This document shows, piece after piece, positions 12,538 to 49,821 of a DNA stretch of 64,000 nt (positions within the stretch are counted from its first letter, which is position 1; each line of letters opens with the position of its first letter). The notes beneath the pieces were generated by a model, which saw nothing but the letters and a program-made list of their open reading frames with translations, had not been told where the DNA came from and did not search any database. The stretch is from a virus. Where the stretch lies: positions 1-64,000 of IMG/VR virus record IMGVR_UViG_3300035053_000267. One strand, 5' to 3'. The translations under genes were made by a program, and so were the position numbers.

Positions 12538-12551
12538 ATTCTCTCCTTATT

Positions 12552-12740: not shown

Positions 12741-12756
12741 AATTACCTCTCTCTCT

Positions 12757-13383: not shown

Positions 13384-13404
13384 GTTTACTCCTTAGTTGT
13401 CATC

Positions 13405-14956: not shown

Positions 14957-14979
14957 CTCCTTACAACGATTTGAAATCG

Positions 14980-15676: not shown

Positions 15677-15713
15677 GTCAACCTCCTTTTTTGGTTCGTA
15701 AACGTTTACTTTA

Positions 15714-15742
15714 TATTATTCCCATAAATCAGGAAGAATTAA
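15714..15742 (-). promoter_or_regulatory. Putative phage promoter TTAAWY-N16/17-(A/C)ATAAT
   Basis: TTAATT-16-AATAAT; related motif at 43129, 49922, 54433, 56677, 56744. Confidence 0.5.
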
Positions 15743-15746
15743 CCAG

Positions 15747-16418: not shown

Positions 16419-16439
16419 AGCTAAACCACCTATCTTAAC

Positions 16440-26676: not shown

Positions 26677-27234
26677 TTATCGCTGGTTGGCAACACGGCG
26701 AATCCCGAAGTCCTTGGCCTTGATCTTCACCTTTCGTCCATCGTCGTGCCACCATACCACGCCCTCGATATCGCTCCCCGGTCCCTTGAACCACTCCCGC
26801 AGTTTGTCGAAGGTGCGTGGTGCGGCAACGGGATGCTGACCGTGCGGAACGAGCGTATGCGAGTTAAATCCTTCTGGGTTGCCTTGCACCTTTGGCCCAA
26901 TCAGTTCATAAGTGCCGTCCGGTTCTTCCCCGGTAAACGCTTCACGGAACCAGCGGTCTTCCGGCCCGTCTCCAACCGGACGCCATCCCTGCTGCTTGCC
27001 CGTATTCGGGTCAATATCGCAAGCAGGCTCAAAGTCAGGCGGAAAGGCCTTACCTCGCTTCACTTCATATCGCTTGAACAGTTGTCCATTACGCACCATG
27101 CAGCACATCCCGTCCCACTTCCGAGTTGCGGTGCCTTCACCGTTCAGTACCCATTCAGCACCTGGTACGACTTCATCCCTCACGAGTCTATCCGTCTCAT
27201 AATTTCTCTGAAACAAGCTGATAATCTTCTGCAT
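26677..27234 (-). CDS. RNA ligase-like nucleotidyltransferase
   Basis: Motif I TRKWDG, YELIG, EGVVW, KIKAKDF; ATG 27234 with AGGAGA RBS. Confidence 0.7.
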   Translation of the reverse strand: MQKIISLFQRNYETDRLVRDEVVPGAEWVLNGEGTATRKWDGMCCMVRNGQLFKRYEVKRGKAFPPDFEPACDIDPNTGKQQGWRPVGDGPEDRWFREAFTGEEPDGTYELIGPKVQGNPEGFNSHTLVPHGQHPVAAPRTFDKLREWFKGPGSDIEGVVWWHDDGRKVKIKAKDFGIRRVANQR

Positions 27235-27565
27235 TACTGTTCTCCTTTTGTTCTTTCTTCTTATCGTTCGCAGTTTATACATGTACCGCACTGTTGGGCA
27301 GATAATGCCCGCGACACTCATCTTGCTGCGGAGCGCATAGCCTGCCATCAGTTACCATGAGCAACACGTCTCGACATGTTAATTTCAATCGCACACGGTA
27401 TGCGGTTGGATGCCAAACATACCAGGCCGCTGATTCATTGCGGTACTGCCGCAGGTCTGAGCCGGTTGACCGCATTGCGGACAGTGCCCGAGACTGACGG
27501 GCAAAGCGCTGGGCTGTTGCCTTTATTCGCTTTCTTTGCTCACTCACTCCTAAACCTCACTTTCA

Positions 27566-27694
27566 GAGACAAAGGGACGAGTCATGCCGCCCGGCATCGG
27601 TCAATCGTGTGCGCACACGCAGTGGCAAAGCTGCGAACGGCGTCCCGTTGCCCTTGTCCGGCAGGACTCGAACCTGCGACCCGATCCCTGTCTC
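27566..27694 (-). ncRNA. Candidate structured ncRNA with tRNA-like T-arm
   Basis: Closing stem GAGACA..GGGA/TCCCTGTCTC, four internal hairpins, GCAGG-TTCGAGT-CCTGC. Confidence 0.4.
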
Positions 27695-27712
27695 AAAGTT
27701 GTCAATATACGC

Positions 27713-27771
27713 CTCCAACAAGGCGCAGCAAGCGACTCCGCTTCGCTACGCGCTTGAGCTAGTTGTTCGCG
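27713..27771 (+). repeat. attC-like site
   Basis: CTCCAAC...GTTCGCG, 59 bp; near-identical to 30532 and 34333. Confidence 0.8.
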
Positions 27772-27965
27772 ATAAAGTTCTTTCCTTCAATACCGCAGTT
27801 CAGGCTTTTTGGCTTGATCGGGCGTTTGCGTTGCGTTTCACGACGTGCCAAAAACGGAGACGCAAAATGACATAGCTCGTCCCGCCAGTGCAGGCAGTCT
27901 TCGCATTTTGGATAACAAGTCAATTCAGGGGACATGTGCCCCGCTGTGCGTTTCGTGTTACTCAT
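27759..27965 (-). CDS. Cassette ORF, Cys-rich
   Basis: Starts inside site 27910; ends ANN* inside site 27713. Confidence 0.5.
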   Translation of the reverse strand: MSNTKRTAGHMSPELTCYPKCEDCLHWRDELCHFASPFLARRETQRKRPIKPKSLNCGIEGKNFIANN

Positions 27966-28010
27966 GATCGTTCTCCCTGGGGCACATGCCCCTGATTTCC
28001 GGCATTGGGC
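27910..28010 (+). repeat. attC-like site (degenerate R')
   Basis: GGATAAC...TCAGGGGACATGTGCCCC/GGGGCACATGCCCCTGA...ATTGGGC. Confidence 0.65.
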
Positions 28011-28192
28011 GGCACACGACAGCCACACCACGGGCAATACCGTATTGCTGGCAAACTGATGGCAACGCCATTCAGGGCCGCATGCTTACATGATGCGTGG
28101 AGTTTGCCCCAATTAGGAACAAACTTGCCACATTTACAGCGTCCAACCATGCGCCCAACAAGGCGCTGGACCGCTACAAAAAATCCGCTCAT
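27962..28192 (-). CDS. Cassette ORF, Zn-ribbon-like
   Basis: RBS and ATG inside site 28153; YCPWCG. Confidence 0.55.
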   Translation of the reverse strand: MSGFFVAVQRLVGRMVGRCKCGKFVPNWGKLHASCKHAALNGVAISLPAIRYCPWCGCRVPPNAGNQGHVPQGERS

Positions 28193-28231
28193 ACTTCGCT
28201 CCTTTTTTGATGGTCAGCTTGTGCGTTCGGC
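28153..28231 (+). repeat. attC-like site
   Basis: GCCCAAC AAGGC GCTGGACC...GGTCAGC TTGTGC GTTCGGC. Confidence 0.85.
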
Positions 28232-28322
28232 ATCAGGCACCCCGGCATGGGAACGGGCATCGGGGAATCGAACCCCAAGCAGCCAGCCATACGCCCGTCA
28301 GGTTTGCCTACCCGTGCCTGAT
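28232..28322 (-). ncRNA. Non-coding cassette with tRNA-like minihelix
   Basis: Terminal IR ATCAGGCAC/GTGCCTGAT; ACGGGCGT/ATGCCCGT stem; GGGG-TTCGATT-CCCC. Confidence 0.45.
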
Positions 28323-28384
28323 TCCGAACAAATCGTTTCACAAACTACCTCGCTTCGCTCGGAGTGTGAACTCCGGCGTTGGGG
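28323..28384 (+). repeat. attC-like site
   Basis: TCCGAAC AAATC GTTTCACA...TGTGAAC TCCGGC GTTGGGG. Confidence 0.85.
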
Positions 28385-28536
28385 CGACCAAGAATCTCGC
28401 GCACAAGGCGCATCCACTCGCCCTTGATTTCGTTCTGAATCTTCTCGTCGATCTGTTCCCACTCTTGCCGCAACCCGCGCCTGTCGGTGAAGTCGGTCAC
28501 TATCGCATCAACAATCAGTTCTGCCGTCTTGTCCAT
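28345..28536 (-). CDS. Cassette ORF, hypothetical
   Basis: MDKTAEL...DFTDRRGLRQEWEQID; GGAGGA RBS. Confidence 0.6.
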   Translation of the reverse strand: MDKTAELIVDAIVTDFTDRRGLRQEWEQIDEKIQNEIKGEWMRLVREILGRPNAGVHTPSEAR

Positions 28537-28553
28537 CCTGTCCTCCATTTTTG

Positions 28554-28613
28554 CCCCAACAAAGGGCTGCAATCTACCTCGCTTCGCTCGGAGCTTGAGC
28601 CCCGGCGTTGAAC
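28554..28613 (+). repeat. attC-like site
   Basis: CCCCAAC AAAGG GCTGCAAT...CTTGAGC CCCGGC GTTGAAC; same family as 31263 and 34798. Confidence 0.85.
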
Positions 28614-28643
28614 TTGACATCCGCCAGCCTCCTGTGGTATTCT
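28614..28643 (+). promoter_or_regulatory. Cassette-internal sigma70-like promoter
   Basis: TTGACA-18-TATTCT with TG extension. Confidence 0.55.
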
Positions 28644-28677
28644 TCGCTCGTGTTTGACCTTTAATAGGAGTCTCGTT

Positions 28678-29163
28678 ATGACACCATATGAACTTGGAAT
28701 TAAAGTTGCACAACAACGCAACGTGTCCGGACACCTGAAGCAGGCGTACGCCCAGGGGCTTGCGGAGGTGTTTGAGAAGAGGGCCTTTTTGGGACTCGGA
28801 CGCCCAAAACAGCGTCCCCAAGCGCCTACTTACACGCCGCCGGTGATGCCCGATTTTCGCCTGGATCCGAACTTTGAACAGAAGGTTCTAGCCGCCATGC
28901 GTAAGGAATGGGGCGAAAGTTTCAACCCAGGAAACTGGACTAACGTCGACGTCGCCGACGGTACTGACGAATTCGATACTATGGAATCCGCCTTGGCTCT
29001 GCAGGAGGCGCTCGGCCTCCCGGTAAGCCTGGACAACATACCGGACGAATTGATGCCGATTGGCGACGCCGCAGCAGACTGGCGCCCGCTCCTCTCTGAA
29101 TTGCAACGTGCTCTAAAAGCCCAACAAGGTGCTCCAGCTTACTCCGCTTCGCTCCGAAGCTGA
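28678..29163 (+). CDS. K-x-A-leader protein with acyl-carrier-protein-like C-domain
   Basis: AGGAG RBS 28666-70; GTDEFDTMESALALQEALG...IPDE versus ACP GADSLDTVELVMALEEEF..EIPDE. Confidence 0.6.
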   Translation: MTPYELGIKVAQQRNVSGHLKQAYAQGLAEVFEKRAFLGLGRPKQRPQAPTYTPPVMPDFRLDPNFEQKVLAAMRKEWGESFNPGNWTNVDVADGTDEFDTMESALALQEALGLPVSLDNIPDELMPIGDAAADWRPLLSELQRALKAQQGAPAYSASLRS

Positions 29164-29178
29164 GCTTGATCGTTGAGT
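29119..29178 (+). repeat. attC-like site (canonical architecture)
   Basis: GCCCAAC AAGGT GCTCCAGC...GCTGAGC TTGATC GTTGAGT. Confidence 0.9.
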
Positions 29179-29504
29179 TTCTTAGAAGATAAAACTCCGC
29201 AAAGCAGCACAGCTTTATCATCTTCGTTGCTGCATCCTTCTTCAATGAGACCGGCCGCTGTTTCAAGCCCGCTGTTGTACGCATGGCATTCTGCACAGGC
29301 GTATATTCGCAATCCGCACCTATCTCCTTTCCAATACGCTTTTTCATTTCCGCAGTCGCATGGTATATTCATCTCATTACTTTCCTCGTTAAAACCCAAC
29401 AAGGTGTCGGTGCGTATATCCGAAAGGGCACGTTCTGCATCCATATCCGGGTCCATGCTCATTAACTCAGTAATCAATTTCTTGACCGTCAGCCTGGCCG
29501 TCAT
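29139..29504 (-). CDS. Cassette ORF, hypothetical
   Basis: Ends LNDQAQLRSEAE* inside site 29119. Confidence 0.55.
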   Translation of the reverse strand: MTARLTVKKLITELMSMDPDMDAERALSDIRTDTLLGFNEESNEMNIPCDCGNEKAYWKGDRCGLRIYACAECHAYNSGLETAAGLIEEGCSNEDDKAVLLCGVLSSKKLNDQAQLRSEAE

Positions 29505-29683
29505 TTTGGCTCTCCTGTTTTATTGTTCATTAACGCTTGTTCTGCCGCCTTGACGTGCTCGCAACATTGTCCGGTGTTTGCTTCACAGCGACATTCAAGC
29601 AGCCCGCGTAACGCCGCTCGCAATACCGAACAGTCGCATTGAGTGGGTACTTGCGCCCCGCTCGCGTTTTCTACATCACTCAT
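29501..29683 (-). CDS. Small hypothetical protein
   Basis: AGGAG RBS; stop overlaps next start. Confidence 0.5.
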   Translation of the reverse strand: MSDVENASGAQVPTQCDCSVLRAALRGLLECRCEANTGQCCEHVKAAEQALMNNKTGEPK

Positions 29684-29995
29684 GGTTTACTCCTTAGGGC
29701 AACTGCCCTTGATTTGTGGCGCTCACAACATCCAAGATGCGCCCGATCACGGGATGGCTTTTAATTTTATACGGTTTTTAAAAGAATATAAAGCCATTGA
29801 AGCACATTAACCACCAGCCACACAGCGCCAGCGATAACTGCTACGTTAATAAGAAATGTGAGCGCGATCATAATTATACGCACGGCTATAAATTGTTTGG
29901 AATTTACCATTTTATCCCTTTCACTTCATTATTCATTTAAAAAATAATCCGCGTGACGATGTCTACTTCTTCTTAACTGCGCCCATATCTGAACC

Positions 29996-30268
29996 TCACA
30001 CTCGGCGTTGGTAATCTACCGTCAGGTCTTCCACGGTGTAGTCACCAATGCGATCAAACACCCCAATCACGCCACCACACTGGATGCCGATGTTTACGCA
30101 CAAGTCCGCGTCTACGCACTCTTCCAGCACGTCCTTCTGCTGCCTGCGCGTGAGGCGGGCTAATCGACGTATCGAAGGAGGCCCCTTCTCTGGGTCAAAC
30201 TGCTCGCGCCGAATGATGCCAACAAGACGATCGAGCATACTGTCAATTACGCTTAGCTCCACTGTCAT
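29996..30268 (-). CDS. Hypothetical protein
   Basis: GGAGGTG RBS. Confidence 0.55.
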   Translation of the reverse strand: MTVELSVIDSMLDRLVGIIRREQFDPEKGPPSIRRLARLTRRQQKDVLEECVDADLCVNIGIQCGGVIGVFDRIGDYTVEDLTVDYQRRV

Positions 30269-30511
30269 TCACTCACCTCCATAGCTGGGGCGGCATGCTT
30301 CCCGCAGCACTTCGTGTCCTTTGTCCGTCATACGGAAATACTCATCCGGCACGAACGACTTGCAGCCCGCCGACACCATCAGCCCAGCCTCGATCAGCTT
30401 TTGCATGTCGGGGCTGTCCCCGCAATACAGCCCACCAGCGGCCCGGTGTGCCGTGTGATCCAGTATCGCCAGTTGTTCCTTATTCAATCGCTTCCAATTC
30501 ATTTCACTCAT
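30269..30511 (-). CDS. Small winged-helix-like hypothetical protein
   Basis: MSEMNW...LIEAGLM...YFRMTDKGHEVL; AGGAG RBS. Confidence 0.55.
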   Translation of the reverse strand: MSEMNWKRLNKEQLAILDHTAHRAAGGLYCGDSPDMQKLIEAGLMVSAGCKSFVPDEYFRMTDKGHEVLREACRPSYGGE

Positions 30512-30531
30512 TCTTCTCTCCTTATTCAGAT

Positions 30532-30588
30532 TGCCAACAAAATGCAGCAAGCGACTCCGCTTCGCTACGCTTGAGCTAGTTGTTGTCT
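30532..30588 (+). repeat. attC-like site
   Basis: TGCCAAC...CTTGAGC TAGTT GTTGTCT. Confidence 0.8.
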
Positions 30589-30983
30589 GTACTGATGCCG
30601 CATGGCAGGTCTTCTGGCCCAAGTCCCTCGCAACAATCCACGCAGATGCGTCTACCTTCCCCAGCCTTGTCGAACGGCTCAGTGTAATGAACCTCGTACT
30701 CGTTGCCGCAGTTGGCACACGTCACAATGGTGTTGGACGGGACAGACAACAAAGCAGTGGATGCTATCGGCGAGTACGCCGAAGCGTCACCGCCAGCGTT
30801 GGGTTTACCAACGAGTTGCATCGTCTCAAACATCTGAACATAGTTGACGGTGCCATCGTCTTGCACAATCACCCACGAGTCACCTGTCGCTTGCGGCGTG
30901 TAGTCCACCACTCCGCGCAAACTCGATCCGTCGCTGGCGAAAACCACCAGCACCCTGTCGTCCTTCTCAATCCTGTTTTTCAT
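30576..30983 (-). CDS. Two-cassette fusion ORF (SH3-like part plus Zn ribbon)
   Basis: Reads in frame through site 30744. Confidence 0.6.
   Translation of the reverse strand: MKNRIEKDDRVLVVFASDGSSLRGVVDYTPQATGDSWVIVQDDGTVNYVQMFETMQLVGKPNAGGDASAYSPIASTALLSVPSNTIVTCANCGNEYEVHYTEPFDKAGEGRRICVDCCEGLGPEDLPCGISTDNN
30744..30804 (+). repeat. attC-like site (intragenic)
   Basis: AGACAAC AAAGC AGTGGATG...CGTCACC GCCAGC GTTGGGT. Confidence 0.8.
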
Positions 30984-31009
30984 CTTGTTCCTTCCCGCCT
31001 TGCTGGGAA

Positions 31010-31071
31010 ACCCAACAAGACAAATCGAGCCTACTTGCTACCGCTGCGAGACTGCTTTGCAGCGTTTGGGG
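31010..31071 (+). repeat. attC-like site (degenerate)
   Basis: ACCCAAC...TTTGGGG; both ends match neighbouring sites. Confidence 0.55.
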
Positions 31072-31245
31072 CTAGTAAAGTTCTTCCCATTCATTGTCGC
31101 CATTGCCCGTGTACTGGCTCACCGTCTCGCCGTCGATCCGCAGCAGCACGCCGCCATCCTCCAGCACGCCAGCCTTGTAGTCGTCCAGCAATTCCGCGTC
31201 GGCAATGTGCGCTCTGCCCTTGTAGTCAACACTCACGTATGTCAT
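31072..31245 (-). CDS. Cassette ORF, acidic
   Basis: MTYVSVD with GGAGGA RBS. Confidence 0.55.
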   Translation of the reverse strand: MTYVSVDYKGRAHIADAELLDDYKAGVLEDGGVLLRIDGETVSQYTGNGDNEWEELY

Positions 31246-31262
31246 CTTGTCCTCCAATCCAG

Positions 31263-31322
31263 CCCCAACAAAGGGCTTCAATCTACCTCGCTTCGCTCGG
31301 AGCTTGAGCCCCGACGGTGAGC
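31263..31322 (+). repeat. attC-like site
   Basis: Near-identical to 28554; R' changed to GGTGAGC. Confidence 0.75.
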
Positions 31323-31514
31323 GCTGCATTGGGCATATAATCTTAGCCAGCGTGATACGCTTTGATTTGCCCCGCGTCCTCTTCGTCCCAAGCAACACCA
31401 GTAAGGGCGTCTACGATGTCAGGAATGTCTGTGTTTGTCAGTTCGTGGATTTTCTCCACCGCGTCACCTATCAGAATCAAGTGGTTCAATTTCATCGTTT
31501 TCCTTCCCGTCCAT

Positions 31515-31587
31515 GCCCAACAAAAGCATGGACAACTGCGTCATTTTCGCTTCGCTTCAATGCCGAGTGTCATGCTCGGCGTTCGAC
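31515..31587 (+). repeat. attC-like site
   Basis: GCCCAAC...GCATGGACA/TGTCATGC...GTTCGAC. Confidence 0.85.
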
Positions 31588-31769
31588 AGACGAGCGAGTA
31601 TGCGGCGTGATTCCCTTCCCAGCGTAACGCCGGGGCGCACAATGCTGCGCTTGTCGATGTCTGCTTGTCCCTCGGTCATCTCGACGATTGCCCGCACCAG
31701 CTCCAGCGCGGGGCATGTCGAACAAGCGGATGGACAACTACCTTCATTCGTCGCGCTTCGCTTACTCAT
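31557..31769 (-). CDS. Cassette ORF
   Basis: Starts inside site 31717, stops inside site 31515. Confidence 0.45.
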   Translation of the reverse strand: MSKRSATNEGSCPSACSTCPALELVRAIVEMTEGQADIDKRSIVRPGVTLGRESRRILARLSNAEHDTRH

Positions 31770-31796
31770 TTCGGAGTGTCATCCTTTCCGTTAGCC
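31717..31796 (+). repeat. attC-like site
   Basis: GTCGAAC...GGATGGACA/TGTCATCC...GTTAGCC. Confidence 0.85.
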
Positions 31797-32002
31797 CTAC
31801 AGCCTTCGTTGCGGCATCCGTTCGGCGTGAGGCCGCACTTCTTGCAGTAGCCCGAGTGCAGCATGGCGTTCAGGTTGTTTGCCCAGTGCCACAGATCATC
31901 GTCTTGCGGACGGGCAAACTCCATCATCTCAATGCTCACCCCGGAAGGGCGAACAAGGCGTCCGACCGTACCCGAAACAGCCGCTTGCGGTGTTTGGTTC
32001 AT
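31766..32002 (-). CDS. Cassette ORF
   Basis: MNQTPQ start in an ATGA overlap inside site 31948. Confidence 0.5.
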   Translation of the reverse strand: MNQTPQAAVSGTVGRLVRPSGVSIEMMEFARPQDDDLWHWANNLNAMLHSGYCKKCGLTPNGCRNEGCRANGKDDTPK

Positions 32003-32050
32003 GCTGTGCCTTTCTCTGGCTGTTTCGATCCGGTCAACTCTGCGTTGGGC
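31948..32050 (+). repeat. attC-like site
   Basis: GGCGAAC...GACCG..CGAAACAGCC/GGCTGTTTCG..CGGTC...GTTGGGC. Confidence 0.85.
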
Positions 32051-32241
32051 ATATGAGGCTCTATCAGCGTAATCGTGCATCCCTCGCTGACCGCCCATTC
32101 TTTTTTTGTCTCCATGTCCTGAAAGTACCACGAGTCGCCCGTTGCCGAGGGCGTGTGTAGTACCTTGGCCCGACTGCAAAGCGTGTACTGTGCATTGTTG
32201 AAGTTAACACATACAATGTCGCCTTCCTGAATTGATCTCAT
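31999..32241 (-). CDS. Cassette ORF, related to N-half of 30576..30983
   Basis: Shared TPxATGDSW motif. Confidence 0.6.
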   Translation of the reverse strand: MRSIQEGDIVCVNFNNAQYTLCSRAKVLHTPSATGDSWYFQDMETKKEWAVSEGCTITLIEPHMPNAELTGSKQPEKGTA

Positions 32242-32268
32242 GTTGTCCTTTCCGGCCTTGCGGTACGT

Positions 32269-32326
32269 GCCCAACAAGGCCAATCGACGGTACGGCTATT
32301 CGCCGCCCGTCATTGCTGCGTTGGAC
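32269..32326 (+). repeat. attC-like site
   Basis: GCCCAAC AAGGC CAATCGAC...GTCATTG CTGC GTTGGAC. Confidence 0.85.
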
Positions 32327-32493
32327 GTATCGTGTTTATCGAGAATCATGTTCACAGACCCAAGGCAGGATGTGAACGCGGCGCGTCCATCCGGACCAGC
32401 CAGTTGACTGTTTTTCGCAACCTCAAGTTCGCGCTTCAAGTCGCGCAAATCGTCCAACAAAGAAGTGGACGCTACCTCATTTCGCTCGCTCAT
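32296..32493 (-). CDS. Cassette ORF
   Basis: Starts inside site 32452, stops inside site 32269. Confidence 0.55.
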   Translation of the reverse strand: MSERNEVASTSLLDDLRDLKRELEVAKNSQLAGPDGRAAFTSCLGSVNMILDKHDTSNAAMTGGE

Positions 32494-32535
32494 TCTTCGC
32501 TCCCTTCATTCTGATCGTCACTTCCGGCGTTGGGC
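32452..32535 (+). repeat. attC-like site
   Basis: GTCCAAC...GAAGTGGACG/CGTCACTTC...GTTGGGC. Confidence 0.85.
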
Positions 32536-32708
32536 GTATAATCAGGGTTGTGCCAGACCGAAAACCCGTTCCGCTGCAAAACATCTGCGGCCACGCTGGT
32601 CTGACAGAAGCCGTCCGACCCGTAATCCGTGTCCAGTTCCTTCGCCTTGCGAATGATGTCATTCGCGCTGGCCGGTTCGTCATCAATCATGTACTTTTTT
32701 TCGTTCAT
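32490..32708 (-). CDS. Cassette ORF
   Basis: AGGAG RBS; ends PNAGSDDQNEGSEE*. Confidence 0.6.
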   Translation of the reverse strand: MNEKKYMIDDEPASANDIIRKAKELDTDYGSDGFCQTSVAADVLQRNGFSVWHNPDYTPNAGSDDQNEGSEE

Positions 32709-32734
32709 CGCTTTTCTCCTTTATGTTACGGAAC

Positions 32735-32793
32735 GCCCAACAAGGCGCTCCAGCTTACTCCGCTTCGCTCCGAAGTTGAGCTAGTTATTGAGT
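32735..32793 (+). repeat. attC-like site
   Basis: Near-identical to 29119; R' ATTGAGT. Confidence 0.8.
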
Positions 32794-33302
32794 TTCCACG
32801 CAATAACACGAGTTTTGCTTTCGTCAAGTTCGCTGTTATTGGAGAAGCAAAACCGAGGATCGGTCGGTTCCTCTAGTGTCATCTTATCCTCGGTTATTCG
32901 ATCTGTGCGATAATGCAGAACCTTGCAAATCAAAGGTGCGCTGAATGGTGGGTGACTATCAGCGTGCCAGACATTAAAAGAAACCCAATGATCGCTTGGA
33001 ACAGACGCGGAAACCGCGCCGCTAAAGTGTGCGTTCGGCATACGTTCCCTTGCGGCATCCCACGCCTTTCGGACCATCGGATCGGCGTGACTTCCAATCC
33101 AATGTCCACCTTTCGTCCCGACCTCAACGACGTACCAGTGCCACCAATCGTATTCCGACTTCCAGCGCAGAACGCCGCCAGCCTGTTTCGTTGTCTCAAT
33201 CTCATCCGCCCACGCCCACGCAGACAGATGCCGAACAAGACGTTTAAATTTATCTTTCACTCGCTTCGCTCCTTTCAGAAAACTCAATTTAGGCGTTGGC
33301 AT
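32781..33302 (-). CDS. Two-cassette fusion ORF
   Basis: Reads in frame through site 32983; start uncertain. Confidence 0.5.
   Translation of the reverse strand: MPTPKLSFLKGAKRVKDKFKRLVRHLSAWAWADEIETTKQAGGVLRWKSEYDWWHWYVVEVGTKGGHWIGSHADPMVRKAWDAARERMPNAHFSGAVSASVPSDHWVSFNVWHADSHPPFSAPLICKVLHYRTDRITEDKMTLEEPTDPRFCFSNNSELDESKTRVIAWKLNN
32983..33039 (+). repeat. attC-like site (degenerate, intragenic)
   Basis: ACCCAAT...CGCGGAAACCGCG...GTTCGGC. Confidence 0.6.
33230..33301 (+). repeat. attC-like site
   Basis: GCCGAAC...CGTTTAAATT/AATTTAGGCG...GTTGGCA. Confidence 0.7.
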
Positions 33303-33603
33303 CTACCCCCCACACGTCCCAAATGAACGCATGGACGTTCTCTTTGTCCCAAGCCTGCCGCGTCGCCCATCCGTCCTCTGATTCAGCAGGGATTCCGTGG
33401 CTGTCGAGCCACGTCCGGTACTCTCTCAAAAAATCGTGGTACTGACGCGGGGCCTGTGTTACCGCATGGATATACTCGGCAAGCGCAAGGTGGTCATCAA
33501 GGCATGTTCGGCACCTGTCAATCCAACAGTCAAAGTGATGCCGAACCGGAAATACCAACAAATCAGTAGAGGCCGTATCCATTCGATCGCTTTGTTCATT
33601 CAT
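33289..33603 (-). CDS. Cassette ORF
   Basis: MNEQSD with GGAGG RBS; ends DANA*. Confidence 0.55.
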   Translation of the reverse strand: MNEQSDRMDTASTDLLVFPVRHHFDCWIDRCRTCLDDHLALAEYIHAVTQAPRQYHDFLREYRTWLDSHGIPAESEDGWATRQAWDKENVHAFIWDVWGVDANA

Positions 33604-33770
33604 GCTAAAACCTCCCTTACCTCTGCACCATCCCATGTCGCCGCATACAACCATACACCGCGAACACACCACCGGCTGCACCTGACCGGACGGACGCGCG
33701 GGTTTGTCGATGTTTGCTGTGTGTTAGTTTGTGTATGTTTCTTATCCATTATTTACTTCCATTTCGCTCG

Positions 33771-34001
33771 TCAGGTGAATCGGGAGGTAACAGACAACCA
33801 TTGCGGATGTATCCCGCACCCGTCTACGCCGGGCAGCGCGACCTCGTAGTGGCAATCGTCGCCCTTATACGCAGTATAATCATGGGTAATTTCGCCTATC
33901 ATGCCGTCAATGGATTCCGGCCAGTCATTTATCCAGTAGCCGCGATCCTTCATCCAAGTAGACGCCCCACTTTTCACCTTTACGAATGTTCCAACCTTCA
34001 T
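33771..34001 (-). CDS. Cassette ORF, SH3/KOW-like
   Basis: MKVGTFVKVK; AGGAG RBS. Confidence 0.6.
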   Translation of the reverse strand: MKVGTFVKVKSGASTWMKDRGYWINDWPESIDGMIGEITHDYTAYKGDDCHYEVALPGVDGCGIHPQWLSVTSRFT

Positions 34002-34012
34002 ATTATCTCCTG

Positions 34013-34072
34013 CGCCAACAAGGCGTTCCAGATTATTTCACTTTGCTCAAAATCTGAGATTTGTCGTTAACT
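34013..34072 (+). repeat. attC-like site
   Basis: CGCCAAC AAGGC GTTCCAGATT...AATCTGAGA...GTTAACT. Confidence 0.75.
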
Positions 34073-34323
34073 GACGCCGCTGGTCCCATACTTTGCTGGG
34101 CTGTGCGTAACATCCGTTTCGCTGTTTCGTGACGGGATTCGTCGGAGTACTTCATTTCGACCTGATGCAGCAACTCGCAGTACAGGCCGTTCAGGCGTTT
34201 GTTTTCCAGTTCAAACCGCAAGACCTCTTTATGCAGGGCTTCGTTCTCTTGCTCAAGGTCCGTTATATATGCCGCGCTGGTTTCCGGCAACTCGCCCCGT
34301 TCTATATCGCTTGGTTCTATCAT
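34033..34323 (-). CDS. Cassette ORF, coiled-coil
   Basis: LYCELLHQVEMKYSDESRHETAKR; AGGAG RBS. Confidence 0.6.
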   Translation of the reverse strand: MIEPSDIERGELPETSAAYITDLEQENEALHKEVLRFELENKRLNGLYCELLHQVEMKYSDESRHETAKRMLRTAQQSMGPAASVNDKSQILSKVK

Positions 34324-34332
34324 TATATACTC

Positions 34333-34391
34333 CTTCAACAAGGCGCAGCAAGTGACTCCGCTTAGCTACGCGCTTGAGCTAGTTGTTGGGC
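34333..34391 (+). repeat. attC-like site
   Basis: Near-identical to 27713. Confidence 0.8.
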
Positions 34392-34392
34392 A

Positions 34393-34569
34393 TCACAACC
34401 GTACCCCGTCCCAGTTGACGCTGCTGAACCACACAGGCATGTGGTCAATGCTCTCGCGGTCTTCCTTGCGCCTCACGGCGTCTTCGAGGTCTTCCTCGGT
34501 CAGAACGCCGTGCGTGATCCGCGTTGTGTCCTTGTCCGTCTTCCAATATGCGTCATAATTGATTTCCAT
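34393..34569 (-). CDS. Cassette ORF
   Basis: MEINYD; has its own stop codon. Confidence 0.5.
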   Translation of the reverse strand: MEINYDAYWKTDKDTTRITHGVLTEEDLEDAVRRKEDRESIDHMPVWFSSVNWDGVRL

Positions 34570-34596
34570 CGTTCCCTTTCCGGCCTTGCGGGACAT

Positions 34597-34654
34597 GCCC
34601 AACAAGGCCAATAGAGCGCACGTCTAACGCCGCCGCTCATTGCTGTCGTTGGGC
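34597..34654 (+). repeat. attC-like site
   Basis: GCCCAAC AAGGC CAATAGAGCG...CGCTCATTG CTGTC GTTGGGC. Confidence 0.85.
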
Positions 34655-34785
34655 GTATACTTCTGTGTCCAGTCCGTCACTTGATGCTCTGCTGGCATCT
34701 TGTCTCCGCACTTTGGACACTTAGCCATGTCCTTCCGTTTTGGTACATTCACTGTTCCGCACCACTGACAATGCATCTGTTCCAT
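34624..34785 (-). CDS. Cassette ORF, Zn ribbon
   Basis: CQWC...CPKC; GGAGG RBS. Confidence 0.55.
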   Translation of the reverse strand: MEQMHCQWCGTVNVPKRKDMAKCPKCGDKMPAEHQVTDWTQKYTPNDSNERRR

Positions 34786-34797
34786 GGTCGTCCTCCC

Positions 34798-34857
34798 GCC
34801 CAACAAAGGGCTGCAATCTACCTCTCTTCGCTCGGAGCTTGAGCCCTGGCGTTCGGT
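34798..34857 (+). repeat. attC-like site
   Basis: Same family as 28554; R' GTTCGGT. Confidence 0.85.
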
Positions 34858-34935
34858 GCCAATTCATTGCACCGCCAGCACTCCATGTCGTAATCGTTGT
34901 TCAGTTGCCCACAGTGATCGCATGTTCACGTCGGC

Positions 34936-35017
34936 ACCGAACAAAACGCTGGAAAACTATCTCCGCTTCGCTCCGAAGTCTCCGCTTCGCTCCGAAGTCT
35001 CAGCTTCTGCATTGGCT
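34936..35017 (+). repeat. attC-like site with 19-bp internal tandem duplication
   Basis: ACCGAAC...(TCTCCGCTTCGCTCCGAAG)x2...ATTGGCT. Confidence 0.75.
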
Positions 35018-35199
35018 GCAAGGTCGCGCAATACCTTAGCCGCCCACTCACAGCGTGCCCGAATGTTCTCCCGCTCGCTCATCATGGCCAAGCTGACGCG
35101 CTCGTGTCGCATGAACCATTCCTGGTGCTTGCGGAAGATGTCGTCAAAAACGTCGGCAGCAGCCAACAAGGCGCTGGAGTCTATCGTCTGTCCGCTCAT
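34957..35199 (-). CDS. Cassette ORF
   Basis: Starts inside site 35161. Confidence 0.55.
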   Translation of the reverse strand: MSGQTIDSSALLAAADVFDDIFRKHQEWFMRHERVSLAMMSERENIRARCEWAAKVLRDLAANAEAETSERSGDFGAKRR

Positions 35200-35238
35200 T
35201 CTTCGCTCCCTTCTTGACCGTCAAGACGGTCGTTCGGT
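35161..35238 (+). repeat. attC-like site
   Basis: AGCCAAC AAGGC GCTGGAG...GTTCGGT. Confidence 0.7.
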
Positions 35239-35399
35239 TTCCAAAGCCCAAACGTGAACAGCCGTCCCCAGTCTATGAGTAGTGACTTCCAAAGAGGAAC
35301 TCGCATGTCTGGCATAAATGATGGCGTATCAAGCCGATTGAAAAACCGAACAAGGCACTTCAGCGCACCAATGAAGCCGCGCCAACCTTTCTGTTTCAT
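35196..35399 (-). CDS. Cassette ORF
   Basis: MKQKGW start inside site 35345. Confidence 0.5.
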   Translation of the reverse strand: MKQKGWRGFIGALKCLVRFFNRLDTPSFMPDMRVPLWKSLLIDWGRLFTFGLWKPNDRLDGQEGSEE

Positions 35400-35450
35400 T
35401 CTCCACGTCCTTCCTGCGGCTTCATTGGCCGCTGAGTTTCGGCGTTCGGC
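35345..35450 (+). repeat. attC-like site
   Basis: ACCGAAC...CAGCG..CCAATGAAGCCGC/GCGGCTTCATTGG.CGCTG...GTTCGGC. Confidence 0.88.
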
Positions 35451-35674
35451 TCGTATCCACAAGCGCGGCATGGGTATGGCCGTGAGCCAGAAATTTCTGC
35501 GCCGCATGATACGCAGTGATACGAGGCTGTCTGATTACGGGCATGGTGAGCCGCTAAAGCGGCGCCGGTCAGCCGCGTGCCCGCAAGGTCGATGAACGGC
35601 TCAGCCGAACCACTGGATGCAGGCTGACCGCCTGCGGTTTCTGTGGTTGCGGTGTTCGTAGATTCATCTTTCAT
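35396..35674 (-). CDS. Cassette ORF, Zn ribbon
   Basis: CVSC...CRAC; starts inside site 35604. Confidence 0.55.
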   Translation of the reverse strand: MKDESTNTATTETAGGQPASSGSAEPFIDLAGTRLTGAALAAHHARNQTASYHCVSCGAEISGSRPYPCRACGYEPNAETQRPMKPQEGRGE

Positions 35675-35733
35675 CGTCTGTGTCTCCTTCGGTTTCTGAT
35701 TGTTCCCGGCGGCAGCTGATCCTGCCGTTCGAC
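35604..35733 (+). repeat. attC-like site
   Basis: GCCGAAC...GGATGCAG/CTGATCC...GTTCGAC. Confidence 0.8.
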
Positions 35734-35930
35734 ACCATACACCGTATGCTGGAATAGAATCCGGTCAAGTGTCGCCTCCACTTCATCGGCCTGTGCTCAA
35801 ATGTGTGAGGCTTACACTTTCCGTCCGGCTTCATCAGCCCATCCCATCGGCATTTCCATGTTTCAGGGTGCTGATGCGGGCAGGGTGTCGAACCAGGCGC
35901 TGGAGAACTATCGTCAATCCGCTCGTTCAT
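35664..35930 (-). CDS. Cassette ORF
   Basis: Starts inside site 35887, stops inside site 35604. Confidence 0.5.
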   Translation of the reverse strand: MNERIDDSSPAPGSTPCPHQHPETWKCRWDGLMKPDGKCKPHTFEHRPMKWRRHLTGFYSSIRCMVSNGRISCRREQSETEGDTDDER

Positions 35931-35973
35931 TCTTCACTCACTCCTTTCCGAAGTCTCAGCTTCGACGTTGGCC
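35887..35973 (+). repeat. attC-like site
   Basis: GTCGAAC CAGGC GCTGGAGA...TCTCAGC TTCGAC GTTGGCC. Confidence 0.88.
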
Positions 35974-36221
35974 TCAAAGACGTGGAACACGAGCCCGCCG
36001 CCGTGAAGCTGAAACGTGCCGATGTAGTCACCGGGATCAGTAGCGCAGCAATGGCCGGTGCCGTACACGCGGAACGTCCGACGTTCCTGCGGGGCGTTCG
36101 AGTCCACCAGCGCCCACAGTTGCGGTTCGCCGTGCTGTTCTTGCACTGTCAGGATCTTCGCGCCTTGCGGCATGTCCAACGTGCATTCGGTGGTCAGTGT
36201 CCATTTCCAGATTGTTCTCAT
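35934..36221 (-). CDS. Cassette ORF, conserved-looking small phage protein
   Basis: MRTIWKW...MPQGAKILTV...LWALVD...YGTGH...YIGTFQ...FHVFE. Confidence 0.75.
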   Translation of the reverse strand: MRTIWKWTLTTECTLDMPQGAKILTVQEQHGEPQLWALVDSNAPQERRTFRVYGTGHCCATDPGDYIGTFQLHGGGLVFHVFEANVEAETSERSE

Positions 36222-36249
36222 GCTGTCCTTTCTGCTCGGTCAACCGTGA

Positions 36250-36307
36250 GGCCAACCAGGCGTTGGAGAATACGGCTTACAGCCGATTCTCAACTTTATC
36301 GTTCGGT
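36250..36307 (+). repeat. attC-like site
   Basis: GGCCAAC CAGGC GTTGGAGA...TCTCAAC TTTATC GTTCGGT. Confidence 0.9.
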
Positions 36308-36894
36308 TGAACTTCCGCAGGCCAGCGCCACTTGCCACGATCAAGGCATTCCACAATGGCGAGCGCCACGGCGGCTACCTGCACGGCTTCCTCTCGGATG
36401 TGCTCGGCGGCTGGCCCTCCAAACCGATCATGGAGTGCGCACTGGCACAGCTCGCCGTATTCCTCGCCGAGCACTGTTAGGTAGGCAAACGGGTCATGGT
36501 TTTGCTCGCCCCACTTCTCATCCTGCCGCCGCCGTTCTTCGAGCACGTCAACCAGTGCAACCGAACAAGGCGCTTCACTCGTACCGACAAAGGCCGGTTT
36601 TGCGTTGTCTGTCATGTCATTTCCTTTCTCCGGCTTTTGCTGGCCGGTCAGCTTGTCGTTGGGCTCCTCTGGTCCAAGGCCACAGCAGCCCTCCTCGGGG
36701 TACTCATGGAACCACGCCACGTGATCGTAGAAACGGCGCGTCTTCCCGTCGTCGTCGAGAACACCCTGCTCTGGTCCGTCAGCAATCTGGATTTCAGACT
36801 CTTCTTCTTCAGGGTCGTCCTTCGGGCCAAGAGGCGCGACGATCAACCCACAGAACTCAGCCAGCGTCCGAATCTCCTTGATCGTCAGTATCAT
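36277..36894 (-). CDS. Two-cassette fusion; C-part is a MazG-like nucleotide pyrophosphohydrolase
   Basis: ERRRQDEKWGEQNH...GEEYGE...EEAVQVAAVA; reads through site 36560, which also holds an internal ATG. Confidence 0.7.
   Translation of the reverse strand: MILTIKEIRTLAEFCGLIVAPLGPKDDPEEEESEIQIADGPEQGVLDDDGKTRRFYDHVAWFHEYPEEGCCGLGPEEPNDKLTGQQKPEKGNDMTDNAKPAFVGTSEAPCSVALVDVLEERRRQDEKWGEQNHDPFAYLTVLGEEYGELCQCALHDRFGGPAAEHIREEAVQVAAVALAIVECLDRGKWRWPAEVQPNDKVENRL
36560..36664 (+). repeat. attC-like site (intragenic)
   Basis: ACCGAAC AAGGC GCTTCAC...GGTCAGC TTGTC GTTGGGC. Confidence 0.75.
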
Positions 36895-36920
36895 TGCTTT
36901 CCTTTCTGCTGGCCGGGTAA

Positions 36921-36978
36921 GCCCAACCAGCATTTCGAGCGTACCGGCTACCGCCGTCCGCTCAAATCGTTGTTGGCA
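36921..36978 (+). repeat. attC-like site (last clear site)
   Basis: GCCCAAC CAGCA TTTCGAGCG...CGCTCAAA TCGTT GTTGGCA. Confidence 0.85.
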
Positions 36979-37123
36979 TCTTCAATGATGGTCGATCTCG
37001 ATCCAATTGGCGTCCATGTCACAATCCGCAAGCGGGTTTCCTGCGCTAATGTCGTGACGGTAGCCAGTCTTGTACTCGATCCATTCTTCAATTTCGCGTT
37101 CTGTTGCCCCCGTCTCGGGCACT

Positions 37124-37396
37124 TCAATGACGAGCGACACATTGTATTGCTTCATCTCGTTCCTTATTATTTATAAGATTTATCAGCTCCTCTGGTAAAT
37201 CATCTGTCCAGAAGTCGTTTTCTTCACACTCAAAACCATATTTAAGACCCCAAAATTCTCTTATTGCTCCATGGCCCAGAACATCGTTGTCACGCCACCC
37301 TGAGAGTTTTTCTCTGCCATGGGCAGAGAATACCTCTTTATCAGTTAAGTAAAATAGTTTGTTATCTTTTTCAATCCAGCTTATAAAATTGCACAT
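37124..37396 (-). pseudogene. Truncated copy of the helical-repeat protein N-domain
   Basis: Near-identical to the paralogs for about 70 aa; no repeats. Confidence 0.6.
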
Positions 37397-37462
37397 GTTT
37401 ACTCCTTAATTGTTTGAAATGCAGCCGACAGGATGCAGCTCCCTGTCGGCTGTACGCTGTTA

Positions 37463-49813: not shown

Positions 49814-49821
49814 ATTCATAG

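Follow-up and report, generated by a model that had tools for sequence, protein, structure and literature searches.

A probable integron-type cassette array with reversed genes in a jumbo-type phage genome

Clusters of attC sites lacking an integrase (CALINs) have been described in phages, virulent ones included, each phage having 2-3 predicted attC sites (Qi, Rajabal, Ghaly, Tetu and Gillings 2023, Front Microbiol, PMC9892861, Table S1), and the integrase IntI1 recombined five of the six phage attC sites tested (Qi et al. 2023, PMC9892861). The folding of attC is favoured on the template for the lagging strand, and in sedentary chromosomal integrons (SCIs) the leading-strand template usually carries the attC bottom strands (25 of 30 SCIs; Loot et al. 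2017, PMC5371416). The window analysed here is a stretch of 64,000 nucleotides (IMG/VR record IMGVR_UViG_3300035053_000267, positions 1 to 64,000) from a 112-kb contig covering about 57% of a phage genome. It contains a tract that is likely to be a genuine integron-type cassette array, a CALIN, in the genome of a jumbo-type phage; as in the published phage CALINs, attC sites occur in a phage genome with no nearby integron integrase.

Extent and architecture of the array

A sequence-only reading of the window had reported about 30 imperfect palindromes in this tract; these are present, and curation set their number at 29 attC-type sites of 57-130 nt (median 61), running from the first R'' at 27713 to the last R' at 36978, all with the top strand on the plus strand. 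The crossover-to-crossover distance between consecutive sites has a median of 256 bp, and the sites bound about 28 cassettes with about 30 tiny genes; the number of sites is some ten times that of any published phage case. The features are listed below, with scores from a covariance model (R2) trained solely on the phage sites of the array; "chain 4/4" marks a junction with a neighbouring site that is perfect over its four variable R-box bases.

27713-27771 (+), attC site 1, family A, 59 nt, 67.5 bits
27910-28010 (+), attC site 2, 101 nt, R' ATT, 23.4 bits, chain 4/4 with next site; loop contains the Shine-Dalgarno (SD) sequence and ATG of ORF 27759-27965 as well as the stop codon of ORF 27962-28192
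28153-28231 (+), attC site 3, 79 nt, loop with start codon, 36.6 bits
28323-28384 (+), attC site 4, 62 nt, 64.8 bits, chain 4/4
28554-28613 (+), attC site 5, family B, 60 nt, 73.8 bits
28678-29163 (+), sole sense-oriented cassette ORF, 161 aa, SD AGGAG and ATG, ending within its own attC (29119); antisense frame open for just 54 nt; no family match in the searches
29119-29178 (+), attC site 6, family C, 60 nt, 73.3 bits; 96% identical to an attC in a sister phage contig (L036/G009)
29179-30531 (-), long interval of lower GC with five ORFs (29139-29372/29504, 29501-29683, 29767-29910, 29996-30268, 30269-30511) as well as two attC-like remnants, both degenerate (29394; 30217-30290); chain complementarity broken across it
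30532-30588 (+), attC site 7, family A, 57 nt, 58.1 bits, chain 4/4
30576-30983 (-), two-cassette fusion ORF, 135 aa, running through site 8; C-terminal half a zinc ribbon
30744-30804 (+), attC site 8, 61 nt, lacking an in-frame stop, 35.5 bits, chain 4/4 at both its junctions
31010-31070 (+), attC site 9, 61 nt, under the R2 threshold, from an ad hoc scan; R'' matches R' of site 8 at 7/7
31263-31322 (+), attC site 10, family B, R' GGT, 66.1 bits
31515-31587 (+), attC site 11, 73 nt, 38.1 bits, chain 4/4
31717-31796 (+), attC site 12, 80 nt, loop ATGA stop/start overlap, 29.9 bits
31948-32050 (+), attC site 13, 103 nt, loop ATGA overlap, 19.4 bits, chain 4/4
32269-32326 (+), attC site 14, family D, 58 nt, 20.4 bits, textbook predicted bottom-strand fold with one bulge
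32452-32535 (+), attC site 15, 84 nt, loop ATGA overlap, 57.2 bits, chain 4/4
32735-32793 (+), attC site 16, family C, R' ATT, 64.8 bits
33230-33301 (+), attC site 17, 72 nt, 43.3 bits
34013-34072 (+), attC site 18, 60 nt, AT-rich, 59.4 bits
34333-34391 (+), attC site 19, family A, 61.4 bits, chain 4/4
34597-34654 (+), attC site 20, family D, own R pairing perfect, 26.7 bits; predicted fold of -15.5 kcal/mol with R stem, 4x4 spacer and bulged L stem
34798-34857 (+), attC site 21, family B, 74.1 bits
34936-35017 (+), attC site 22, 82 nt, R' ATT, 39.6 bits; 19-nt loop motif in tandem duplicate at 34960-34997 (repeat D2)
35161-35238 (+), attC site 23, 78 nt, loop ATGA overlap, 18.9 bits, chain 4/4
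35345-35450 (+), attC site 24, 106 nt, loop ATGA overlap, 30.7 bits, predicted fold -25 kcal/mol
35604-35733 (+), attC site 25, 130 nt, under the R2 threshold, from the ad hoc scan, chain 4/4 on both sides
35887-35973 (+), attC site 26, 87 nt, loop with start codon, 34.6 bits, chain 4/4
35934-36221 (-), DUF7352 cassette ORF, 95 aa; Pfam PF24043 E 5.9e-27, phrog_3848 E 1e-20, 222 homologues
36250-36307 (+), attC site 27, 58 nt, 40.2 bits, chain 4/4
36277-36615 (-), cassette ORF, 112 aa, phage family phrog_24212 E 2.4e-22, start in the loop of site 28
36560-36664 (+), attC site 28, 105 nt, 19.4 bits; no in-frame stop, so that the ORF from 36894 continues to 36277 (205 aa)
36921-36978 (+), attC site 29, right end of the array, 58 nt, 15.0 bits, predicted fold -14.7 kcal/mol
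27759-36894 (-), string of about 30 cassette ORFs of 47-159 aa with SD and ATG starts and coding-type composition
Further cassette ORFs (-): 27759-27965, 27962-28192, 28189-28341, 28345-28536, 31072-31245, 31343-31495, 31557-31769, 31766-32002, 31999-32241, 32296-32493, 32490-32708, 32781-33260, 33289-33603, 33600-33749, 33771-34001, 34033-34323, 34393-34569, 34624-34785, 34957-35199, 35196-35399, 35396-35674, 35664-35930

The R2 model was run over both strands of 284 kb, comprising the whole contig and 12 other loci, and gave 26 matches at E<=0.11, every one on the plus strand and within 27713-36664; the sole further match at E<=1 was weak and lay just left of the array (25493, E 0.95), and the remaining 47.7 kb of the contig yielded none at E<=1 on either strand. 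A check by covariance model had been proposed for this contig; with the self-trained R2 the matches on it were confined almost wholly to the array, and a region-limited run with filters off returned 28 matches. The motif [CG][CG]AAC[AC]A occurs 33 times on the plus strand of 27000-37500 and 7 times on its minus strand, compared with 42 times in the other 101 kb.

The attC grammar recognised in the sequence-only reading held on curation, and its transcription of the example at 29119-29178 matches letter for letter. The sites consist of R'' (RYYYAAC), a spacer (5 nt in 27/28 sites), an L'' arm with one extra base (27/28), a variable loop, L', a second spacer (6 nt at 18 sites and 5 nt at 10) and R' (GTTRRRY). 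When R2 was applied to 6 kb of In2 from plasmid R100, the aadA1 attC was the only match, aligned over its full length (1-60) on the aadA1 sense strand with 47.3 bits and E 2.8e-10. The L helix is 92% paired with compensatory changes at seven of its nine pairs, and its covariation score is 0.417, against 0.127 for shuffled and no more than 0.087 for slid alignments. The bottom strands are predicted to fold with extrahelical bases, as had been expected, into a bulged L stem and an R stem with an unpaired spacer between them; the extra base is mostly G on the top strand (C on the bottom), unlike the bottom-strand G of the aadA7 paradigm. A crossover in R' and not R'' is supported by the homology to canonical attC and, modestly, by the within-family identities of the R'' (about 0.86) and R' boxes (about 0.63). 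The invariant G or T of GTT is lost at 4 of the 29 sites (three ATT, one GGT). Since much of each site is coding or translation-signal sequence, some of the site conservation may stem from that role.

Complementary cassette ends and reversed genes

The variable bases of each R' are the reverse complement of those in the R'' of the next site, perfectly so at 18 of the 28 junctions and at 3.32 of 4 positions on average, while at other offsets, the site's own R'' included, the match is 1.7-2.1 of 4 (own 2.03, the chance level); the observed sum was reached in none of 100,000 permutations (P<1e-5). Such complementary cassette ends are the footprint of a crossover inside the R' box. Where gaps are shorter than 700 nt, the mean chain match in 12 other phage arrays is 3.67 of 4. 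With GTT mutated at 4 of the 29 sites and imperfect matches at 10 of the 28 junctions, the present array may be decaying in part.

The same pairing makes it very improbable that the sites are purely regulatory hairpins (terminators, RNase III-type processing sites or PeSL-like repeats) without site-specific recombination. The sites lie between genes or at their junctions, would be transcribed, are predicted to form a stem, an internal loop and a stem, and include translation signals, all of which would suit regulation; a function in place would nevertheless need a site's own two R arms to be paired, and these pair at chance (2.03/4) while the arms of neighbouring sites pair nearly perfectly. 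The preference for the neighbour recurs in the 12 other arrays, and a search of Rfam yielded two tRNAs and nothing else.

The main oddity of the tract had been overlooked in the sequence-only reading: with one exception, the cassette genes are antisense to the canonical attC orientation. The ORFs lie on the attC bottom strand in 27 of 28 cassettes, so transcription passes each attC before its gene. With the crossover AAC read as an Asn codon, the minus-strand frame is open across the cassette at about 23 (22-24) of the 29 sites, and the minus-strand stop falls inside the next attC in 27 of 29. In the long attCs lie the SD sequence and the start codon of the attC's own gene, in many cases within an ATGA stop/start overlap, and at the two sites without an in-frame stop (8 and 28) the adjoining ORFs are fused. 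Codon-position composition is coding-like on the minus strand only (G1 0.367, GC2 0.44, GC3 0.61), the strand on which the DUF7352 and phrog_24212 matches both lie, and no individual promoters for the cassette genes could be seen. Only three weak pairwise matches were found among 32 minus-strand ORFs (the cassette ORFs and the flanking gene 36982-37155); the cassette ORFs are mutually unrelated and are not duplications.

Phage context, relatives and source of the recombinase

The array had been placed between capsid and RNA polymerase genes. RNA polymerase subunit genes do lie to its right; its immediate left neighbour is a phage-type RNA ligase gene, and as to a capsid neighbour nothing beyond a weak prohead-protease-like match, at 16.4-17.9 kb, was found. 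The host replicon is a jumbo-type phage encoding its own multisubunit RNA polymerase. The tract is GC-richer than its flanks, as had been noted, with 0.542 in the array against 0.417 in the rest of the contig, and GC3 is 0.61 in the cassette ORFs against 0.39 in the phage core genes. This contrast (54% vs 42%) and the abrupt GC step at about 37.0 kb could be read as a bacterial integron fragment misjoined into a phage contig during assembly, which is scarcely credible given that the tract's genes share the orientation of the phage genes and fall into phage families, the reversed layout is of phage and not bacterial type, the GC-rich tract continues leftwards across the RNA ligase gene, the DUF7352 protein is recorded from 21 contigs (the longest 111,747 bp, the length of the present contig), and the 96%-identical attC belongs to a similar array in a sister phage.

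No IntI or other tyrosine recombinase was found on the 112-kb contig, which extends the reported absence of an integrase from the window to about 57% of the genome. In IMG/VR, 48 contigs carry this type of attC (81 model-confirmed sites), and IntI is absent from 47 of them, several of which are rated complete. At 19 loci ORFs of at least 120 aa favour one strand by more than 2:1, and at every one of these the genes are encoded opposite to the attC strand, with strong PHROG matches on that coding strand, and the reversed layout was found in 12 further phage arrays. One of these (L038/G033) adjoins a true IntI (385 bits, above the TIGR02249 cut-off) with canonical geometry to the attCs and antisense genes; in the controls, R100 and a Kiritimatiellia MAG with true IntI, the cassettes are sense-oriented. 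At least four attC sites occur on the syntenic sister contig (G009), at a different genomic position, and no close sister phage covering the array locus was found.

The general lack of IntI on these phage contigs, and the presence of a small serine recombinase of the resolvase family at contig positions 69816-70184, would suit a recombinase other than IntI (that enzyme, a Xer-like one or another phage enzyme), with the likeness to attC arising by convergence. This is quite unlikely: the sites can be matched to the aadA1 attC column by column, bulge position and 5/6 spacers included, the single phage contig with a linked recombinase has a true IntI, no serine recombinase is known to use folded single-stranded hairpins, and there is no Y1/HUH transposase.

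It is also rather doubtful, if less so, that the array is a fossil, built by past integron recombination in an ancestor or another replicon, whose sites have lost recombination and persist solely as translation junctions (SD, start and stop) of a phage operon. The lack of an integrase on the contig, the four mutated GTTs, the 10 imperfect junctions, the SD sequences, ATGs and stops carried in loops and the two fused ORF pairs are all compatible with it. Against this, 18 of the 28 junctions are perfect over four variable bases, which points to recent events or continued selection for R-box pairing; L-helix pairing has been kept through compensatory changes, the GC3 difference argues for recent arrival, and the sister phage's array lies at another position.

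The sites behaved like attC in every test run, including the column-for-column retrieval of the aadA1 attC, the L-helix compensation and the complementary cassette ends, and integron-type recombination, as first suggested, probably built the array. An IntI-family integrase would insert cassettes singly, acting on the folded bottom strand, and could be supplied in trans by a host integron or by the unsequenced 43% or so of the phage genome. Some jumbo phages enclose their DNA, and if this phage does so its DNA might be out of reach of a host IntI. The whole array would be transcribed as a single phage operon, in which the uniform frame and the stops within attCs would allow a cassette to be translated correctly whatever the order. 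In the reversed build the recombinogenic bottom strand would be the non-template strand and probably also the lagging-strand template, which would favour folding and shuffling. The cargo may be phage accessory or host-takeover genes from a GC-richer pool common to phages.

Comparison with known systems

Compared with the published phage CALINs (PMC9892861), 29 sites are present here against 2-3 there; DNA methyltransferase cargo occurs there and in related IMG/VR arrays here. The reversed orientation, the crossover frame lock, the stops in the next attC and the start codons in loops are not described there, and jumbo phages that encode a multisubunit RNA polymerase of their own are absent from the published cases. 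The sites share with the class 1 integron aadA1 attC (In2, R100) the 7-nt R boxes, 5- and 6-nt spacers, 8/7-nt L pair, one extra base, 60-nt total length and a similar GCTTCGC loop core. The aadA1 ORF, however, lies on the top strand before its attC, with intI1, attI1 and Pc adjacent, whereas in 27 of 28 phage cassettes the ORF lies on the bottom strand after the attC, and intI, attI and Pc are lacking.

Like the Vibrio cholerae superintegron, the array is long and has small and mostly orphan cassettes, recurring attC families and complementary ends. SCIs have an adjacent intI and mainly sense-oriented ORFs, and the phage array has neither; its crossover spacing is short (median 256 bp), and its GC skew suggests, by inference, the opposite replication strand. 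Inverted cassettes are a minority in bacterial chromosomal integrons and are typically of the toxin-antitoxin kind, each with a promoter of its own; they too have an ORF antisense to its attC, whereas in the phage array reversal is the rule and the genes are translationally coupled via the attC sites. The PeSLs of T4-type phages, reportedly described by Arbiol, Comeau and Krisch in 2010 as mobile regulatory cassettes with a proposed role in gene shuffling, are likewise repeated stem-loops, found around small accessory genes where the phage genome is hyperplastic. They are promoter-plus-stem-loop repeats presumed to work by homologous recombination and show no R/L box grammar, no extrahelical bases and no complementarity of cassette ends, whereas the phage array has all three.

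The attC-type sites and their architecture

Imperfect palindromes with attC grammar, as claimed in the sequence-only reading, were seen on direct reading of the sequence at 27.6-37.4 kb, and the example that had been quoted there (29119-29178) was exact in sequence. An ad hoc grammar scan, which alone is too permissive, concentrated its perfect L-box matches with an extra base on the 5' arm in the array tract, and the motif [CG][CG]AAC[AC]A had 33 occurrences on the + strand of the array region, compared with seven on the region's - strand and 42 over the 101 kb outside it. A MAFFT alignment of 16 sites gave no usable consensus fold. A covariance model (R1) was built from five gapless 60-nt sites and rebuilt from its 18 best matches as R2, which is self-trained on phage sites, contains no bacterial sequence and is distinct from the curated attC model. 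In a search of 284 kb on both strands (the contig and 12 other loci), R2 gave 26 matches with E <= 0.11, all on the + strand and all in 27713-36664. Relaxing the threshold to E <= 1 added a single weak match, at 25493 (E 0.95) and thus close to the left side of the array, and none across the other 47.7 kb of the contig. With the filters off, and over the array region only, 28 matches were returned. Sites 31010 and 35604 (sites are named by their start coordinate) were added on the support of the core sequences of their neighbours, giving 29 curated sites of 57-130 nt.

All 29 sites carry AAC in the R'' box and 25 carry GTT in the R' box (the remainder being ATT in three and GGT in one), with spacers of 5 nt and 5-6 nt. 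An extra base is present in 27 of the 28 aligned sites, without exception on the L'' arm (5' on the top strand), and the bulged base is mostly C, not G, on the bottom strand. The L helix is 92 % paired, and seven of its nine pairs are changed on both sides, in a model-fitted alignment of 28 sites. Its covariation score was 0.417, versus 0.127 after shuffling (0 of 500 reaching 0.417) and at most 0.087 for slid partners, the slid controls being the fairer comparison because the alignment was fitted to the structure and so favours pairing. At least six sequence families of sites have this single common structure. The bottom strands, for which folding with extrahelical bases had been anticipated, fold into an R stem, an unpaired spacer and a bulged L stem, which is the same fold as that described by Nivina et al. 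2016 (PMC5027507). Within site 34936-35017, a 19-nt attC loop motif, TCTCCGCTTCGCTCCGAAG, is duplicated exactly and in tandem (34960-34997).

Comparison with a bacterial site used the 60-nt aadA1/aadA7 attC, which was present in 1962 plasmid records at 99 % identity or above. In R100 this attC immediately follows aadA1 on the sense strand of that gene, and intI1 is located upstream. The aadA1 attC was the sole R2 match in the 6-kb R100 locus, over its full length and on the sense strand (47.3 bits, E 2.8e-10), and R2 also retrieved the attCs of a bacterial genome having IntI. Because a model without bacterial sequence retrieves the aadA1 attC, the phage sites have attC architecture, common to both column for column, and because the match is on the sense strand, the + strand of the window is the attC top strand.

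Cassette junctions and coding strand

Crossover in integrons takes place at G|TT of R', so that the last six R' bases belong to the next cassette and the R'' box of a site should pair with the R' box of the preceding site, not with its own. The four variable bases of R' are the reverse complement of R'' of the following site in 18 of the 28 junctions (mean 3.32 of 4), whereas every other offset gave 1.7-2.1, and the observed junction sum was reached by none of 100,000 permutations (P<1e-5). Conservation of the R boxes through function of each hairpin in place was ruled out, as pairing between a site's own R' and R'' is 2.03 of 4 versus 3.32 with the neighbour. Strong pairing with the neighbour, with own pairing at chance, instead marks the ORF-plus-site units as discrete recombination products, and it is concluded with high confidence that the sites are attC-type and that the array was assembled cassette by cassette via R-box crossover. 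The footprint is symmetric and is silent on which box is cut. Crossover in R' would follow from homology to the canonical attC, with modest extra support; within site families the R'' boxes are better conserved than the R' boxes (about 0.86 versus 0.63). With 29 sites in 9.3 kb, a largest gap of 1353 nt and no intI on the contig, the array is a CALIN.

The cassette ORFs lie on the attC bottom (-) strand in 27 of 28 cassettes, which are in this respect not canonical integron cassettes, and the exception is:

28678-29163, + strand: sole canonical cassette ORF, sense-oriented and ending in its own attC

Matches to DUF7352 (E 5.9e-27) and phrog_24212 (E 2.4e-22) are both on the - strand, and Shine-Dalgarno (SD) sequences with ATG starts were found inside each site or just left of it. 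The minus-strand ORFs, when concatenated, had the composition of coding sequence (G at first codon positions 0.367, GC2 0.44, GC3 0.61), with position 1 resembling that of the phage core genes, and no such composition was seen in the long plus-strand ORFs. The majority of cassette ORFs had no family match. Pairwise comparison of 32 minus-strand ORFs, comprising those of the cassettes and the flanking gene 36982-37155, showed them to be mutually unrelated apart from three weak pairs, one of them explained by a tail that an attC encodes. A strongly hydrophobic 47-aa ORF (29767-29910, - strand), probably a single-pass or double-pass membrane peptide, lies in the array interval that has lower GC and several genes.

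Reading frames were tested on the - strand, with the reverse complement of the R' GTT read as an AAC codon. The AAC frame is open across the upstream cassette at 22-24 of the 29 sites (~23), with the other two frames soon closed, and its stop lies inside the site in 27 of the 29, so that most proteins take their last 2-21 residues from the attC of the neighbouring cassette, and attC-encoded protein tails recur (for example ...PNAG...). At sites 30744 and 36560, which have no stop, the neighbouring ORFs are fused, with products of 135 and 205 aa. Tandem duplication was ruled out as the source of this frame lock, the cassette ORFs being unrelated to one another. Among the 12 sites of at least 72 nt, ten have the start codon and SD for their own gene in the loop, with an ATGA stop/start overlap in seven of those ten.

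The carrier phage, integrases and related arrays

The array is carried by a large, jumbo-type phage, and the completeness of its 111,747-bp IMG/VR contig, of which the window covers the first 64 kb, was estimated by CheckV at 57 %. The long ORFs of the window are all on the - strand.

Features of the contig around the array
26677-27348, - strand: phage-type RNA ligase (phrog_14301, E 1e-67)
27652-27677, - strand: tRNA-like 3' fragment, with T-arm GCAGGTTCGAGTCCTGC and an acceptor-like tail, 36 nt left of the first attC
43.3-45.2 kb and 59.0-63.5 kb, - strand: split multisubunit RNA polymerase subunits
47136-48497, - strand: ATP-dependent DNA ligase with an N-terminal LigD-type 3'-phosphoesterase domain
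49737-49895: tRNA-Pro and tRNA-Met
69816-70184 of the contig, outside the window, - strand: small serine recombinase (Resolvase PF00239, 66 bits, 192-aa frame)

The GC content is 0.50-0.585 across 26-37 kb versus about 0.42 elsewhere, and that of the array proper is 0.542 versus 0.417 in the remaining contig, which bears out the earlier observation of a tract GC-richer than its flanks. The RNA ligase gene is within the GC-rich tract, yet outside the attC array. An Rfam gathering-threshold scan of the window returned the two tRNAs and nothing else. The tRNA-like fragment, single-copy in the window, received no tRNA call by ARAGORN or Rfam, and an Rfam E-value scan of 27300-27800 was empty; it may be what is left of an attachment site at the edge of the array. 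A GTTGGAG partner of the first R'' was not found within 3.7 kb leftward, in a search with the core sequence.

The window had been described as lacking an integrase, and this holds for the 111,747-bp contig (about 57 % of the genome), on which neither TIGR02249 nor PF00589 gave a match and no Y1 transposase was found. Apart from the resolvase-family gene, nothing on the 112-kb contig matched a recombinase family.

Megablast and blastn searches with the array, a flank and one attC gave no match in 50,697 GenBank phage records. No arrays were found at 11 IMG/VR loci with RNA ligase relatives, the 294-aa right-flank protein led to one weak IMG/VR locus and 19 metagenome loci with no attC site in any, and no relatives were found for the 338-aa protein and an RNA polymerase subunit. 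An identical DUF7352 protein is held by 21 contigs, and the DUF7352 homologues in IMG/VR had no flanking attC. A full-text literature search for attC sites in phages found Qi et al. 2023 as the sole report.

A pattern composed of the loop and left box matched 48 IMG/VR contigs, in which R2 confirmed 81 sites, often several on one strand. Cassette bodies matched none of the other IMG/VR loci by blastn, attC sequence alone being common to both, and no cassette protein was held in common with other attC-bearing loci. The favoured ORF strand was opposite to the attC strand in 19 of 19 loci (those with ORFs of at least 120 aa biased more than 2:1), and in three attC-bearing loci (L022, L047 and L048) the antisense strand is backed by strong PHROG matches beside the sites, the genes there being PAPS reductase, DNA methyltransferases, hydrolase, RecT-like, SbcC-like and helicase. 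Antisense ORFs in the other IMG/VR arrays use the AAC frame or end exactly at the crossover, where TAA is the reverse complement of an R' beginning GTTA. Chain complementarity in 12 further arrays, over gaps of less than 700 nt, averaged 3.67 of 4 (19 of 27 perfect), with own boxes at 2.31.

One attC of a sister jumbo phage (contig G009) has 96 % identity to site 29119, and G009 and the 94-111 kb part of this phage are collinear, with 35-52 % identity at the amino-acid level. G009 has at least four antisense attC sites in an 8-kb insertion (10500-18600), and the matching interval in this phage, of about 760 bp, has no site, so that the position of the array differs between related phages. One of the 48 attC-bearing phage contigs, G033, which has direct terminal repeats, encodes an IntI that exceeds the curated cut-off (385 bits). 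In the interval 279-5340 of this contig, three attCs are in canonical geometry to intI, and the methylase gene, the cassette ORF and the primase gene run in the same direction as intI and antisense to the attCs, making G033 a candidate complete phage integron. No IntI was found on several attC-bearing contigs rated 100 % complete.

Similar sites also occurred in assemblies assigned to prokaryotes. A Planctomycetota MAG contig, DATLAR010000344.1 (L088), has nine sites at 570-2804 (up to 77 bits) that are very similar to those of the window and antisense to small ORFs, with a phage-type helicase and a DUF2800 nuclease downstream. L088 probably derives from a phage or prophage and was binned together with the MAG, which weakly hints at Planctomycetota as the host phylum. 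In a Kiritimatiellia MAG that encodes a true IntI (419 bits), the two Pfam-attributed attC-linked genes, RelA/SpoT and WG-repeat, have the sense orientation and finish at the site or within it; three of the MAG's four other sites likewise contain the end of a sense ORF, one without a family match in each case. The contig with the IntI of this MAG, just 4.6 kb long, had no R2 match.

Assembly of the array and comparison with known integrons

We infer that an IntI acting in trans built the array, and it may still act on it, on the grounds that IntI1 has been shown to recombine other phage attCs (Qi et al. 2023, PMC9892861) and that one phage contig bears IntI. Integrase-mediated insertion outside att sites has been described (Loot et al., bioRxiv 10.1101/2022.09.11.507474) and could provide the first step by which a phage genome acquires an array. 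The - strand is the direction of the genes and, judging from GC skew, probably of replication too; the bottom strand would then be both the non-template strand and the lagging-strand template, which is where folding and excision are favoured (Loot et al. 2017, PMC5371416). Strand exposure might, speculatively, be the reason for the reversed build.

The case is about evenly balanced for a broader reading, in which phages keep a reversed cassette class of their own, with a dual-purpose attC before the gene, that circulates via integrases and has this phage as its largest holder. In such a class the attC bottom strand would be the sense strand and each attC would precede its gene, serving both as recombination site and as universal translation junction. 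The junction would give the upstream gene its stop and its own gene its ribosome site and start, so that any cassette order would yield a working operon. The recombinogenic strand would be placed where replication and transcription expose it, and cassettes would pass among unrelated phages via host integrases and occasionally phage-encoded ones. If true, this would be the phage counterpart of the bacterial cassette pool, with this jumbo phage as the largest holder so far.

Surveys that presume sense-oriented cassettes may mis-annotate phage arrays. To our knowledge, the attachment of attC sites to genes is an unsolved question, for which the array, with the site in front of the gene, offers a concrete system, and it also permits a test of whether strand placement tunes the recombination rate. 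Anti-phage cassettes have recently been found in bacterial integrons, and the question is raised whether the small orphan proteins act as counter-defence or host-takeover factors that mirror them.

Integrons have been viewed as bacterial devices, and the phage cases hitherto had two or three sites and an uncertain meaning. A 29-site array in a jumbo phage, with genes that are reversed and frame-locked to the crossover and a layout found again in dozens of other phage contigs, points to a parallel phage cassette economy with different design rules. The published phage CALINs have 2-3 sites each (Qi et al. 2023, PMC9892861), whereas this array, with 29 sites in a jumbo phage, is much larger, and its reversed layout is absent from their description of phage CALINs. 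Sedentary bacterial integrons differ as well, most of them having the opposite strand placement (Loot et al. 2017, PMC5371416).
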